A DNA stretch of 61,986 nucleotides, counting the filler, from Globobulimina sp. (Eukaryota): NCBI GenBank assembly GCA_003354225.1. It is 20 parts of 20 records of this genome, joined end to end, with 100 filler letters (N's around TTAATTAATTAA, not from the genome) between each part and the next. Parts side by side here need not be neighbours in the genome. Positions count along the whole stretch, not along the records: positions 1 to 3,007 come from PIVH01004049.1; 19 more parts are not named here. One strand, 5' to 3'. Numbering within the stretch: the first letter of the stretch is position 1; every line of letters begins with the position of its first letter. The position numbers and the translations under genes were made by a program. The notes below the pieces were generated by a model. That model had not been told where the DNA came from. It saw nothing but the letters and a program-made list of their open reading frames with translations, and searched no databases. Below are positions 1 through 5,826 of the stretch, piece by piece.

Positions 1-1
1 T

Positions 2-269
2 CAGGATGGATATTGGTTGATTTCATGGGAGTTATCAAGAAGTGGTTATCCTCATTTGCCTGACTTGCCAAGACTGGGCAATCTCGAACTACACGCCGAT
101 TACAGCGCACAACTGGCCGAACCCACCACATACGTTCTTATTATGGTAAACGGTTTGAATTTGGCGCCAAAAATAAAGTACAGATGTTCAGGTTATATCG
201 TTTTAGGAATACAATTCCAATATTTACATCAAATCAAATATAGAAGTGAGTACTGAATTTGTCGCCTAA
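2..269 (+). CDS. Polinton/adintovirus major capsid protein, C-terminal fragment (intron 146-206)
   Basis: Frame 2 reads QDGYWLISWELSRSGYPHLPDLPRLGNLELHADYSAQLAEPTTYVLIM. Splicing GTAAAC...TTTTAG continues EYNSNIYIKSNIEVSTEFVA*. This matches the recalled Polinton MCP end (GY.L..FDL...GNL.LE..F...L...T..V..EF.N.I.I...R.V). Confidence 0.75.
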
Positions 270-274
270 GAAAG

Positions 275-796
275 ATGGATTGTCAAGAAATCGATAAAAT
301 ATTTAATCTCGATCCTTCAACAAAATGTATATTTCGATCTTGTGTACAAATAAAGGATTTGTCTTCTGTTAAAAAGTTGTACTTGCCTGATCAGGACAAT
401 ATATTTATTTTGTTGTCTTTAACCAATGGTCAATGGCTAGGCCATTTCTTGTTATTGTATGTAGATAAAAATAGAAAGGCCATATTATTCGATTCGACAG
501 GACTGACCAAAATCGACTCCAGAATTGTACAAATAGTTAAAATTCAAATCAAGTGCGTAGACATTACATTTAACCTAAATCGAATTCAATATCCCGATTC
601 ATGTACTTGCGGACTTTATTGCATCTTTGTTGCCCATTACTTGGCCCGCGATTACCTGTTTACCGATATTCTGTCCTGGTTTTCTAAACAAGATTTCAAA
701 TTAAATGACCACAGCGTTTTGGAATGGTTTAGCAAGAAAAAAGGTAGATTAAGTAAAAACTGGTGTCGAAGAGTTGTGGATTGTAATTTCGAATAA
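275..796 (+). CDS. Adenain-like cysteine protease (Polinton PRO, capsid maturation)
   Basis: Catalytic pattern GHF...FDSTG...RIQ...CGLYC, 173 aa, C-terminal ND..V motif. Confidence 0.9.
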   Translation: MDCQEIDKIFNLDPSTKCIFRSCVQIKDLSSVKKLYLPDQDNIFILLSLTNGQWLGHFLLLYVDKNRKAILFDSTGLTKIDSRIVQIVKIQIKCVDITFNLNRIQYPDSCTCGLYCIFVAHYLARDYLFTDILSWFSKQDFKLNDHSVLEWFSKKKGRLSKNWCRRVVDCNFE

Positions 797-797
797 A

Positions 798-1560
798 ATG
801 GAGGAAGGAAGCACAAGTATAGCTGTTATGCCGAATCTGCCCTTTTCCATGGGTATAATGGGCGCCAGTCAAACAGGTAATTTTAGTAGTATGCAATAAT
901 AATACTAAGAAAATAACATAGTTTTCAGGCAAAACTGTCTTTCTGACTAAACTTCTAAAAGCTTGGCCATCTATGTTTCAAGACAGCAGAATCAGAAAAG
1001 TTGTAGTGGTACAAAAATTCCGAGATCAACCGTCCTATGACGAATTAATGGATCATTTCGGACCTGAAATTATTACATTTACACAACAATTCGACGAAAG
1101 TGTTATTTCGGCGGAAAATTTGGGTCCTAAACAGAACGGTAGTGCCATTATTGTATTGGACGATGTAATGCACTTGGTGGCCAATTCGGATCTGCTGTGT
1201 TCCCTGGTAGTAGGGGGTGTTCACCATAACAATATTACCGTATTTTTGATTGGCCACAATTTGTATGGAAGCAGGTCACCAATTTGGCTTACTATTAGTA
1301 GAAATCTGACCATGTTATGCATTATGCCAAATCCTAGGGACATGACTATTTTGTCTACACTAAATAGACAGCTTTTCCCCGGAAAAGGCAAGAATCTTGT
1401 CACTACAGCTTTTAAACTGGCCAGCCAAGACAATTTGAGATACAACCATTCTAATTATTCATATCTACTGGTGGACTGCTCTACCACATGTCCTGATCGA
1501 TACAGACTGCGCACAGGTATAGGCGACAATGTCAAATTTTGTTACGCAATCGAAGGATGA
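798..1560 (+). CDS. Genome-packaging ATPase, A32/FtsK-like (exons 798-876, 929-1560; 236 aa)
   Basis: Spliced Walker A GASQT-G-KT, Walker B IIVLDD, downstream HHNNITVFLIGHNLY, ISRN and YLLVD motifs. Intron GTAATT...TTTTCAG, 52 nt. Confidence 0.92.
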
Positions 1561-1620
1561 CGTCATTATTGCGCAATCGATGTCTGGTTCCGGTGATGAC
1601 TAATTTTATTATTGATCGTA

Positions 1621-2271
1621 ATGGCTTCAGTAAAACGTTACTTCTTGATCAGTCCTGACACTTTCGCCGATTTGAAAGCAACCAAAGCCCAAGTCAGATG
1701 TCAACATGGAGGATACGTCCAGCAACAACTTCAGCCACACTCATTCCCACACTCACAGCCACTCCAATACCAGCAGCCAATCCCTGACAATTATAACCAC
1801 TCGAAAGGAACTGCTGTTGTTGACGACGTTGGTTCTTTTACTGACAATTTTGGCCATAATTCGACTTGTGAGCACAATTGTCAAAGTAATGTTGTAGCGG
1901 AACCGAATGCCCATCTACAGACCAAATCGATAGAAACTTTGGCCCACAAAATATTGTCATACTTTCCCAAGAATATGAAAAGGAATACCCAACTCATTTT
2001 GAACTTTCTTTCACAGCTAGAGGACAAAGAATTTTATGTACTTCCTGGATCGATGGATTTGGTAATAGACGGAAAATTATTGCCCAACAGTAACCTGATG
2101 GAACTGATTACCGAAATTCACAGCAATTTGCCTAATAAAACGAAGGTTTCGATGCCCATGATGGTTTTGATCGAAATATTGGCCAGACGAACAGCTTTAC
2201 CTGCTATAGCCATACAATCGGTGGCTCTTAGAAATTTGTTTAAAAGTATTCGCGAAGAAAGATACAAATAA
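1621..2271 (+). CDS. Polinton/adintovirus-type accessory protein of unknown function
   Basis: N-terminal KRYFLISP and C-terminal LVIDGKLLPNSNLMELI resemble a motif recalled from Polinton accessory ORFs. AATAAA overlaps the stop codon. Confidence 0.55.
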   Translation: MASVKRYFLISPDTFADLKATKAQVRCQHGGYVQQQLQPHSFPHSQPLQYQQPIPDNYNHSKGTAVVDDVGSFTDNFGHNSTCEHNCQSNVVAEPNAHLQTKSIETLAHKILSYFPKNMKRNTQLILNFLSQLEDKEFYVLPGSMDLVIDGKLLPNSNLMELITEIHSNLPNKTKVSMPMMVLIEILARRTALPAIAIQSVALRNLFKSIREERYK

Positions 2272-2323
2272 TAAAAAAGCGATTTATTGTCGATATATTG
2301 ATCCTTTAAAAAAATAAAATACA

Positions 2324-3007
2324 TTATAAATATGTTACAATCAATCTTAAACCTAAAATTCTTACCACTTCCCAATCGGAATGTGGATTAAAGTTGTAGA
2401 CTTTTTCGGTTATGTTCACTTCACATAATCTGTCGATTAAAGCTTCTACATCTTTAGTTTTAGAAAGATCTAATCTTACATCGCTTGCTATTGCCGATAG
2501 ATGACCGGGATAAAAGAATCTAAGTTCTCCAGTTTCCCTGTTTCTTAATAATAACGACAAATCGGCGTGCAATCTGACTGGACCTTGAACGTTCGTGCGA
2601 TGTAATAATTCACCAACTGCTTCCATGTAGAACTGTCTGTTCAAGTCACCATTTTGTGCCAATGGATGAAATACAATCGCACCGTTTGGCATATTTACAT
2701 TGTACGGATGGATTTGGTCCTCGAATCCATTTAAGTAAGATTCGACCCTTGCGTTTTCCTTAATCGATTCGTTGCTATGATCTTGTCCCACCGCTGTGGG
2801 TACTACTTTGCCTGCATATCGATTCCTGAAAAACTGAAATTCTTCTATGTATTAAATAAAGTTACCAAAACTACTACCTTCTCGAAGTCGAAGGTCCATT
2901 TTCGTCAGTAATTCTTGATTTCAATTCTTTTAGTTCTGTTCGTACCTTTTTGGCCTTCGGTTCCGCCAATGTCAGTTTGGCTTGGGCTAACGCCTCTCGT
3001 GCTTCGG
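2324..3007 (-). CDS. Polinton protein resembling the pPolB N-terminal/terminal-protein-like domain (5'-partial; intron 2826-2877)
   Basis: Open exon from the contig end (EAREALAQAK...GPSTSR) splices AAG|GTAGTA...TTTTTCAG|G in frame into the 2324..2791 ORF. Motifs LLLRNRETGELRFFY and PHSDWEVVRILGLRLIV. Confidence 0.6.
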
Positions 3008-3107
3008 NNNNNNNNNNNNNNNNNNNNNNNNNNNNNNNNNNNNNNNNNNNNTTAATTAATTAANNNNNNNNNNNNNNNNNNNNNNNNNNNNNNNNNNNNN
3101 NNNNNNN
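3008..3107. other. Artificial contig spacer (N44-TTAATTAATTAA-N44); first of 19
   Basis: Identical 100-bp spacers also at 6114, 9220, 12326, 15432, 18537, 21642, 24747, 27851, 30955, 34059, 37163, 40267, 43371, 46475, 49578, 52681, 55783 and 58885. The intervening segments decrease steadily from 3007 to 3002 bp, i.e. size-sorted contigs. Confidence 0.99.
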
Positions 3108-4841: not shown

Positions 4842-5826
4842 TTATTGCTTAAACTTTGACAAGAATGATCCTAATTCTTTTATACTATAATAAAATGGCC
4901 CTAACTCTCCTTGATATATAACTTTACCATTTTCAACGGCATATAAACGTTCTGGCATTGATACAAATCTGTTGCCCATATCATTGCTCATATTATCAAT
5001 GATAAATTTTATCTTATTTCCTTTTGTATTTTGTATCATAATCTCATTGAATTCATTTTTATCCTCAATTTTTTCCTTCCATATTTCAATCATTGTTTGT
5101 AACGCATCGACTCTATCATTTATATTCTGCGTAGTTTCAATACCAATATTACCTTTTACCGGGAACCATGAATCTGCTGCATGTGCTTCCGCCATATATA
5201 TCACCACAAAATTTGCAATATCTTTGTATTCCTTGTAAACAGAATAAAAAGTTTGCAAATTCTTCACAAATGGGGGTCAACTATATATTTGTAGGTATTT
5301 GTTTGTTATAATTAATAGGAAATGCATTGCACCTCACATATGGACCAGATTAGCAACACTGGCAACACAAAAACAAGCGAATAATAAATATCACGAATCA
5401 GTATTCAGGTCCAATGTGTGCGAGGTGCAGTGATTAACAAATGACAAACGAGCATGATCCGAAATTAAGCACAGTTAATTTTGATGTGATAATATCTGAT
5501 AATTGAGCTTTTTGTGTGGATGAATCGATCGGATTGTATTTGATGAGTGACATATTAGGAACATTTTCACCAATTTGTATTTCCTGTAATATTAATTGAA
5601 AAGCTCTGCTACTGAGTCTTCTTGAAATCTCTAAAAGCTGTTTTATGTTCCATGCATATTTACCAGTGGTTTTCATAACGAATTTATTGCGGACATATAC
5701 AAGCCACATGCAAATAAGTTTCGTCATCAATCCGACTGCTCTTTTAGATGAGATTCGTTTAAATACATATAAATATAAAGCTAGTGCTCCAATTGACACT
5801 GCAAGCAACAACCATTTCGTTACCAT
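4842..5826 (-). CDS. Iodothyronine deiodinase-like selenoprotein (intron 5281-5449; Sec UGA at 5277-5279)
   Basis: The spliced product reads LTVLNFGSCS-U-PPF, then FVVIYMAEAHAADSW, DNMSN, PERLY and YQGELGPFYY, all deiodinase signatures. N-terminal TM anchor. Confidence 0.92.

Follow-up and report, generated by a model that had tools for sequence, protein, structure and literature searches.

The first contig (PIVH01004049.1) of a 61,986-nucleotide window from the genome assembly of Globobulimina sp. (GenBank GCA_003354225.1) carries part of a Polinton/Maverick element in which the gene for the packaging ATPase appears to be split by a spliceosomal intron. The window, which is the whole stretch of DNA that was analysed, is built of 20 blocks of about 3.0 kb in descending order of length, joined by 19 artificial linkers, and the element lies at positions 1–3007. 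The contig, complete in itself and from an AT-rich eukaryote, is a real Polinton/Maverick fragment. An earlier sequence-only reading had assigned its ATPase and protease to the morphogenesis genes of the Polinton/adintovirus type, and family profiles, fold matches and catalytic residues all agree with this assignment. It is judged likely that the fragment combines an intron-split ATPase gene with probable introns in the capsid gene and in a converging gene, called gene Y here, the intactness of the element being left aside.

Four genes on the plus strand, encoding the C-terminus of the probable major capsid protein (MCP), the protease, the packaging ATPase and a protein designated ORF217, are followed by gene Y, which converges on them from the minus strand. 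Read on its own coding strand, each of three segments starts with GT and finishes with AG: 146–206 (61 nt), 877–928 (52 nt) and 2826–2877 (52 nt). They are referred to as introns 1, 2 and 3, and the positions, lengths and ends proposed for them earlier are exact. Their GC contents are 0.34, 0.21 and 0.25, respectively, compared to 0.39–0.48 in the flanking exons. The three sequences resemble neither each other nor the other contigs of the window. Removal of 877–928 and of 2826–2877 restores an open frame, as had been claimed for all three, but this is not strictly so for 146–206, where the unspliced frame stays open to 254–256. The features of a U2-type intron, namely GT-AG ends, a pyrimidine-rich 3' end and a continuous homologous protein after removal, are all found in 877–928. 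They are also found in 146–206, where the homology is weaker, while 2826–2877 displays only the boundaries and the open frame.

The ATPase gene is organized as follows.

798–876, plus strand: exon 1 of the packaging ATPase, which contains the start ATG and the beginning of the P-loop and breaks off one base into the Walker A glycine codon.
877–928, plus strand: predicted intron 2, a phase 1 segment of 52 nt (GTAATT...TTTTCAG) that contains TACTAAG, a motif resembling a branch site.
929–1560, plus strand: exon 2 of the packaging ATPase, from the Walker A lysine onward, with the DD pair of Walker B, the HH-N motif and the C-terminal RLRT; stop codon at 1558–1560.

Read through without splicing, exon 1 meets a stop codon at 897–899, and the Walker A motif, GxxxxGK[ST], is complete only once 877–928 has been removed. 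The GC content of this segment (0.21) is below the values of 0.48 and 0.40 in the two exons. In intronless homologues the P-loop is found 15–35 residues from the N-terminus, and the joined exons align without a gap to three of these proteins, P0002–P0004. A hidden Markov model (HMM) of the ATPase was made from 61 homologues, the window protein and its closest relative, P0001, being excluded. The spliced protein scores 142.7 bits against this model, exon 2 alone 123.6 bits and the read-through product of exon 1 3.0 bits, which amounts to a gain of 19 bits from splicing. The proposed junction has the top score among 10 in-frame GT-AG alternatives nearby, and the alignment is ungapped across it. 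The spliced product had been taken for a Polinton ATPase in the sequence-only reading, and the profile comparison bears this out, with homology extending across the 877–928 junction. That the ATPase intron is genuine is strongly supported by these alignments.

A word-indexed protein search with exon 2 alone found four relatives, P0001 with 83% identity over 195 amino acids (aa) and three others with 30–42%. A profile of these relatives matched 10,267 proteins at E ≤ 1e-3, 1,700 of them at E ≤ 1e-30, most of which are about 215 aa long. Pox_A32 (PF04665) is the commonest Pfam family among them: 41 of 63 aligned members match it with E-values of 0.01 or less, the lowest being 1.1e-9. Exon 2 of the window, taken by itself, has no Pfam match. 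The AlphaFold2 (AF2) model of the homologue P0003, which is 31% identical to the window protein, has a pLDDT of 96.9. Its fold has 135 matches in BFVD at E ≤ 1e-3, including adenovirus IVa2, the A32-like ATPases of nucleocytoplasmic large DNA viruses, Sputnik V3 and the mavirus ATPase, and it further matches the FtsK-like protein of Drosophila-associated adintovirus 3. The Walker B pair, the HH-N motif and the RLRT terminus are kept in the window's ATPase. Family profiles and the modelled fold of the homologue confirm the predicted protein as a packaging ATPase of the A32/FtsK-HerA type. In IMG/VR no relative of the ATPase turned up: the window protein retrieved none, and of the 38 pattern matches obtained with an alignment of 7 sequences none was confirmed.

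P0001 is the sole close relative in a collection of 5.8 billion proteins, and is encoded on a contig of 2,586 bp. Its recorded start is an internal methionine homologous to the first methionine of the window's exon 2, so that the recorded protein of 195 aa has no Walker A motif. Such a start would be expected if the same stop-containing insert lies upstream. The prediction that gene calling based on open reading frames (ORFs) would truncate genes of this kind has therefore a concrete instance, since P0001 was called without its Walker A. Three further proteins considered as cases of a shared intron, P0051, P0057 and P0107, were rejected; they simply start at conserved internal methionine residues.

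A second occurrence of the interruption comes from the Logan contigs of three sequencing runs of one sample (X1, X2 and X3), which were compared with contig 1–3007. A contig of 381 nt in run X1 matches positions 826–879 and 956–1031 (12 differences in 76), the flanks being about 84% identical or better. Between the flanks it has 76 letters, compared to 76 in the window (880–955), and its parts add up to its length (168+54+76+76+7=381). This points to a diverged copy with an insert of the same length, the sequence of which can no longer be aligned. Together, the start of P0001 and the second copy suggest that the interruption of the ATPase gene is not a one-off lesion.

These observations bear on the simplest rival explanation, in which the interruptions are frame-breaking insertions in a decaying pseudogene and have GT and AG at their ends by chance. 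Decay is common in such elements: 96% of vertebrate Maverick loci are reported to be mutationally degraded in the available text of PMC8097293, and several metagenome loci related to the one described here have ATPase ORFs broken by frameshifts. Nevertheless, excision of exactly 877–928 rebuilds Walker A in register with the 61 homologues and does so best of the 10 alternatives. Furthermore, the two best-placed segments are both 52 nt long, are far more AT-rich than their flanks and end in a pyrimidine tract and AG, and none of the five genes contains a stop codon or frameshift beyond the three segments. A chance insertion also fits poorly with a diverged second copy that has an insert of identical length. 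The pseudogene explanation is considered very improbable.

The genomic surroundings of the ATPase family were examined by a scan with the ATPase alignment, which gave 19 loci in metagenome contigs and 3 in GTDB genome contigs (metagenome-assembled genomes, MAGs, labelled bacterial). Locus L007 encodes the C-terminal part of a family B DNA polymerase that is protein-primed (pPolB; PF03175, 4e-23), the ATPase and a 195-aa ORF, and on its opposite strand a 459-aa protein (weak DJR-like_dom, E 0.004), two small ORFs and an integrase with rve and chromo domains. Locus L020 begins with an rve+chromo integrase, small ORFs and a 442-aa homologue of the 459-aa protein of L007, and goes on to a protease of 179 aa that matches Peptidase_C5 at E 0.003, the ATPase, one small ORF and a gene similar to ORF217, after which a converging gene carries polymerase motifs (C-terminus). 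The 442-aa protein falls among 'F54H12.2-like' Atlas clusters, in which 14–30% of the members have DJR-like_dom; its Atlas score is 0.98, with 230–236 shared features. The gene content of L007 and L020 places the ATPase family in genuine Polinton/Maverick elements. The order of MCP, protease and ATPase on one strand, followed by a converging gene, is the same in the window as in relatives such as L020. With an identity of 99.2% between the loci L008 and L020, and of 82% between the proteases of L021 and L020, the order is documented in effectively one or two lineages.

Eukaryotic Polinton genes, for integrase, MCP, protease, ATPase and polymerase, occur in L020, L021 (MAG labelled Sedimenticola sp.) and L022 (MAG labelled Zixiibacteriota), and in L022 a gene for TATA-binding protein (PF00352, 7e-38) stands beside them. 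The three contigs are eukaryotic contamination of bacterial bins.

The capsid gene is represented by its 3' end.

2–145, plus strand: penultimate coding piece of the probable MCP, 48 codons, open from the contig start, the 5' end being cut off.
146–206, plus strand: putative intron 1, 61 nt, GTAAAC...TTTTAG, GC 0.34 compared to 0.47 in the preceding exon.
207–269, plus strand: last MCP exon, 20 codons and the stop codon TAA (267–269), 5 nt before the ATG of the protease at 275.

An HMM with 440 columns was made from 5 MCPs of the related loci. The spliced product of 68 residues matches it with 5.6 bits over columns 396–439, across the junction and in register with the end of the profile. This fragment ranks second of the 1,053 six-frame ORFs of the window, and none of 2,000 shuffled sequences reaches 5.6 bits (maximum 3.7). 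Of 43 products compared, comprising 42 GT-AG junctions and the unspliced sequence, that of the proposed junction has the highest score; the runner-up reaches 0.9 bits, exon 1 by itself -0.3 and the unspliced product -1.3. The fragment adjoins the protease on its upstream side, as the MCP does in L020/L008 and in L021. The identification as MCP made earlier is upheld in part, by the gene order and by a 5.6-bit match that ends in register, for a gene of which the contig holds the last 68 residues. From the gene order and this weak match, the 5' fragment is probably the C-terminus of the MCP, and a short intron before its last 20 codons is probable. The capsid intron at 146–206 can be described as moderately supported by the profile scores of the alternative products.

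The gene that follows is uninterrupted.

275–796, plus strand: adenain-like (clan CE) cysteine protease, 173 aa, stop codon at 794–796.

Its Pfam matches are below threshold, with C48 at E 0.024 and 14.9 bits (cut-off 20.7) and C5 at E 0.054 and 13.6 bits (cut-off 21.3), which indicates a divergent member of clan CE rather than a member of Pfam C5. The proteases of L020 and L021 score 17.7 and 15.9 bits, and are found with the window protein by tblastn (L021 1.6e-6, L020 3.8e-4). In an alignment of four sequences His57, Asp73, Gln105 and Cys112 are invariant, the glutamine being 7 residues before the cysteine. The catalytic comparison uses residue numbers that are taken here to be those of adenain. 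Among the structures of the Protein Data Bank (PDB), a profile of this alignment matches S273R of African swine fever virus (ASFV) at 2.2e-6 and proteases of adenoviruses at 7.1e-4 and 7.6e-3, in accord with the earlier assignment. Judged by its sequence profile, the predicted product of 275–796 is an adenain-like protease of clan CE. The contig thus holds both the adenain-like protease and the A32/FtsK-type ATPase, which are among the features by which a Polinton is recognized here.

The compact layout proposed for this region is also confirmed, as the gap between the MCP stop codon and the protease ATG is 5 nt, and that between the protease stop codon and the ATPase ATG at 798 is 1 nt. This packing of the three plus-strand genes is virus-like. 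Downstream of the ATPase lies one more gene on the same strand.

1621–2271, plus strand: conserved Polinton gene 'ORF217', 216 aa.

An HMM made from the post-ATPase ORFs of L012 and L022 matches ORF217 at 8.7e-8, its sole match among the 1,053 window ORFs, and blastp with the L012 ORF gives 6.6e-6. No Pfam family matches ORF217 at its cut-off. An AATAAA overlaps its stop codon. In most of the related loci, namely L001–L005, L009, L012, L020 and L022, a small basic ORF of about 110–130 aa stands directly 3' of the ATPase and shares a conserved region, '...HNVLKGN/...K..L..H/YKK.IR.L...'; no such ORF is present in the window contig between the ATPase and the ORF at 1621–2271.

Gene Y occupies the remainder of the contig on the opposite strand.

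2324–2825, minus strand: last exon of gene Y, stop codon at 2324–2326.
2826–2877, minus strand: putative intron 3, 52 nt, GTAGTA...TTTTTCAG, GC 0.25 compared to 0.46 and 0.39 in its flanks.
2878–3007, minus strand: upstream exon of gene Y, 43 open codons, the N-terminus lying beyond the contig end; the other two frames have stop codons.

Removal of 2826–2877 joins an ORF of 175 codons, ending at 2327, to a frame free of stop codons up to the contig end (3005), whereas the unspliced frame has two TAG codons straight after the donor. This is one of five possible in-frame GT-AG junctions; it sacrifices the least coding sequence, and its pyrimidine tract is the best of the five. Intron 3 is unproven, its support consisting of these signals, with no homologue that spans the junction. 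The statement that three virion genes carry introns does not hold, because gene Y is no recognizable virion gene.

The nature of gene Y was sought in its sequence and in its predicted structure. It has no Pfam match, a protein search gave 72 candidates, none significant, and the best score in the Atlas, at 0.77, was no hit. The single-sequence AF2 model is poor, with a pLDDT of 52 overall and of 57–75 for residues 56–175. Its best BFVD match is the C2H2-domain protein of Drosophila-associated adintovirus 2 (E 1.4e-4), and ranks 5, 7, 15, 16 and 29 are PolB-type proteins (MELD, 'densovirus' and parvovirus-like records) with probabilities of 0.85–0.99. In the L021 polymerase ORF an N-terminal domain comes after C2H2 fingers, and hhalign places gene Y on the N-terminal region of this polymerase with 22% identity over 141 columns, but with P 0.28. 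Local Smith-Waterman comparison of gene Y with polymerase, MCP and integrase ORFs gave scores no better than those of shuffled sequences. A hand-picked global alignment with the N-terminal domain of the L021 polymerase has a z of 3.9, a value biased by the choice of segment; its score was reached by 1 of 1,000 shuffles and by none of 72 control segments. A VIA comparison of the model with 48,161 PDB chains had a best Z of 6.8, to the little-finger domains of Y-family polymerases, which is within the range of common alpha/beta arrangements for a model of low confidence. The tblastn matches of gene Y to L013 and L014 (E 0.07) were dropped, as they are antisense to a real plus-strand gene. Taken together, the model comparisons suggest that gene Y weakly resembles the N-terminal, pre-exonuclease domain of the PolB of adintoviruses and MELD viruses, and the chance that it is the 5' part of a polymerase gene is about even. 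The stop codons of gene Y and ORF217 are 52 nt apart, a spacing that leaves no room for the remaining polymerase codons (about 900). If gene Y is indeed the early-ending start of a polymerase, this copy would be a deletion derivative.

A number of observations weigh against the reading of the contig as part of a Polinton with introns in its own genes. The MCP fragment has an E-value of 0.29 among the window ORFs, one unrelated ORF scores higher (6.0 bits), and a large protein search with MCP exon 1 gave 51 candidates, none at E ≤ 1. The order of MCP and protease with which the fragment was compared rests on effectively two related elements. The window ATPase departs from the family at three nearly invariant columns (Y46, P70 and Q152), and so does P0001. 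Gene Y, which has no significant sequence relative, could start at an internal methionine without any intron, and intron 3 has no support from homology. Finally, the core of pPolB, the integrase, the penton protein and a terminal inverted repeat (TIR) were found neither on the contig nor on the other 19 contigs. DNA_pol_B_2 has no match on the contig, and an HMM of the C-terminal parts of pPolB matches nothing in the window; an integrase HMM reached a best E-value of 0.13 on the 3-kb contig and the other 19, the contig being too short for absence to mean anything. The lineage had been called intact in the sequence-only reading, and this claim is not sustained by a 3-kb contig that has no pPolB core, integrase, TIRs or target-site duplication (TSD).

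Some of these same points would fit an element that carries real introns but is a long-resident remnant, either non-autonomous or adopted by the host, in which the introns were gained in place, as in other nuclear genes, and not an intact, propagating lineage whose virions depend on splicing. A remnant would account for the presence of just 3 kb, for a polymerase core, integrase and TIRs missing from all 20 contigs, for a gene Y that is similar to no more of PolB than its N-terminal domain and terminates at a distance of 52 nt from the ORF217 stop codon, and for the unusual residues of the ATPase; the pair of copies in run X1 could represent alleles, or a duplication of host DNA, instead of products of transposition. 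On the other hand, the spacing of 1 nt and 5 nt has been kept, all four plus-strand reading frames are open and their catalytic motifs are intact. The identity of 83% to P0001 over 195 aa free of stop codons argues for continued constraint. The likeness of gene Y to PolB is weak, so that its interpretation as a truncated polymerase is not secure. On balance the remnant explanation is rather unlikely.

The element could also be foreign to the host genome, and the setting of the contig has some bearing on this question. The blocks of the window are separated as follows.

3008–3107, no strand: artificial linker N44-TTAATTAATTAA-N44, marking the contig end and repeated every ~3.1 kb.

The linkers (3008–3107, 6114..., 9220..., up to 58885...) have stop codons in all six frames. 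Since they join separate contigs, any 'neighbourhood' that spans a linker is artificial, and because they bound each block, the element is confined to one whole contig of 3,007 bp. The other 19 blocks code for ordinary eukaryotic proteins, such as a PPR protein, a DEAH helicase, an XRN exonuclease, KH-domain proteins and polyubiquitin. Neither blastn nor tblastx revealed similarity between contig 1–3007 and the other 19 contigs, and blastn of the contig against itself revealed no internal repeats, the ends of the element lying outside the contig.

In one alternative the contig belongs to an adintovirus-like virus that exists freely, or to some other organism of the sample, and uses nuclear splicing as adenoviruses do. 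The contig carries no host gene and is unlinked to host sequence, the assembly shows a high degree of fragmentation, and related Polinton contigs do occur as contaminants, in bacterial MAGs. However, the Logan depth is low and even across the stretch, unlike that of a replicating virus (although the depth table is a poor measure), two diverged copies are present in one sample, and the GC content of 0.34–0.39 is close to that of the other contigs of the window. An origin outside the host is regarded as improbable.

Run X1 is the sole run that has the contig: X2 gave no match to it and X3 two short unrelated pieces only. The main X1 contig (1,926 nt) spans 26–1822 without a gap, so that introns 1 and 2 are present in it. 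Their presence would be expected if X1 were DNA, and would amount to intron retention, a point against the proposed splicing, if X1 were RNA; as the kind of run is unrecorded, it has been given no weight either way. The X1 contig differs from the window at positions 13–25 and extends 129 nt further, and around 2369–2468 the run breaks up into several short contigs with variant letters and a depth that is roughly doubled. The differences at 13–25 and the break-up near 2369–2468 suggest that the sample contains the element in more than one copy or allele, and that the first 25 nt of the contig may be unreliable.

The host introns of the other 19 contigs were too few for usable statistics, which were attempted in two ways. 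One host gene deserves mention in its own right. At about 5270–5450 on the minus strand, contig 2 encodes a thioredoxin-fold protein resembling a selenoprotein of the iodothyronine-deiodinase type. An exon end, ...NFGSCS, is followed by an intron-like segment of about 170 nt (GTTTGT...TATATAG), an in-frame TGA at 5277–5279 and then PPF. The motif used for this comparison is taken here to be that of the deiodinase active site; if this is right, the TGA would be a selenocysteine codon. The intron-like segment is far longer than the segments of 52–61 nt in the Polinton contig.

If the introns are genuine, the element would be transcribed in the nucleus and the host spliceosome would remove them. 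In the ATPase gene a U2-type intron of 52 nt would split the glycine codon just before the Walker A lysine. As the intron divides Walker A, active ATPase would, by homology, be made from the spliced nuclear transcript only, and the unspliced product would be without a P-loop. The 61-nt intron would probably precede the last 20 codons of the capsid gene, and the converging gene would probably contain the second intron of 52 nt. The gaps of 1 nt and 5 nt would mean either a common transcript for MCP, protease and ATPase or an unusual form of initiation. Dependence on nuclear splicing is familiar from adenoviruses, which require that of their host. Polintons are copied at the DNA level by a protein-primed polymerase, and introns would therefore be inherited by new copies. 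Such inheritance fits the occurrence of the same interruption in the second, diverged copy and, apparently, in the relative P0001. The full proposal, of a Polinton/Maverick lineage that multiplies as DNA with introns in the ATPase and MCP genes, makes its virions in a splicing-dependent manner and is missed by ORF-based and prokaryotic gene callers, is put forward tentatively and with something short of even confidence.

Known Polintons and their relatives are described differently with respect to introns. Intact vertebrate Mavericks have eight conserved intronless ORFs according to the available text of Barreat & Katzourakis 2021 (PMC8097293). As far as that text goes, they share with the window element the MCP, the adenain-like protease, the packaging ATPase and, adjoining its gene, conserved ORFs of small size, and also the position of the MCP directly upstream of the protease and the convergence of gene modules. 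They differ in that the window ATPase gene, and probably the MCP gene, is split by an intron. Their ATPase belongs to the polymerase module on the strand opposite to MCP and protease, whereas in the window, L020 and L021 all three genes are on one strand. Unlike those elements, the window fragment displays no TIRs, TSD, integrase or polymerase core. The nematode Mavericks, in the accessible part of Widen et al. (bioRxiv 10.1101/2022.07.12.499685), are virus-like, with PolB, integrase, FtsK-like ATPase, adenovirus-like protease and capsid genes; their core genes are intronless and introns occur only in cargo derived from the host, in contrast to the window element, in which the introns would lie in core genes.

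In Starrett et al. 2021 (PMC8502044) the word 'splice' is absent from the account of adintoviruses and the lone 'intron' refers to group II maturases, so that no spliced adintovirus genes are described there. The ATPase family of the window resembles the adintoviruses in its fold, through the FtsK-like protein of adintovirus 3, and gene Y does so through its fold matches to the C2H2 protein of adintovirus 2 and to the PolB of MELD viruses. Unlike adintoviruses, the window element is known from the genes of a contig and not as a free virus. The ATPase family also matches adenovirus IVa2 and poxvirus A32 (PF04665) in fold and P-loop motifs, with 13–19% identity in the fold matches, and the protease has the His-Asp/Glu-Gln-Cys arrangement and spacing of adenain (PF00770); in contrast to the adenovirus and poxvirus proteins, the window's own proteins are below both Pfam cut-offs.

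A parallel is found in dinoflagellates, where introners occur inside Maverick-polinton-like proviruses, as reported in the accessible text of Gozashti et al. 2025 (PMC11957031). There too, spliceosomal-type introns lie in integrated Polinton-like elements that keep their morphogenesis genes. Those introns, however, are copies of mobile introner families of protists, whereas the three of the window are mutually dissimilar, and the host is another kind of eukaryote. Two surveys employ ORF-based or prokaryotic callers, the available passages stating that integrated viruses 'do not contain introns' (PMC10120064, PMC9356565), and PMC4028283 makes no mention of intron, exon or splicing. No report of spliceosomal introns in the core genes of animal Polintons was found, in a search that extended neither to supplements nor to two older papers, Kapitonov & Jurka 2006 and Pritham et al. 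2007, in which introns of invertebrate Polintons may be described.

The present case is limited to one contig of 3 kb. As judged from gene structure and homology, at least one core gene, that of the ATPase, has a genuine-looking intron, and an intron in the capsid gene is plausible. P0001 provides a concrete case in which an ORF caller truncated a Polinton gene that is apparently split by an intron. If a lineage with introns in its ATPase and capsid genes does exist, the assumption of Polinton surveys that there are no introns can fail. Its virion genes would then depend on splicing, and the expression of the element's genes would be tied to the nucleus and the spliceosome of the host.

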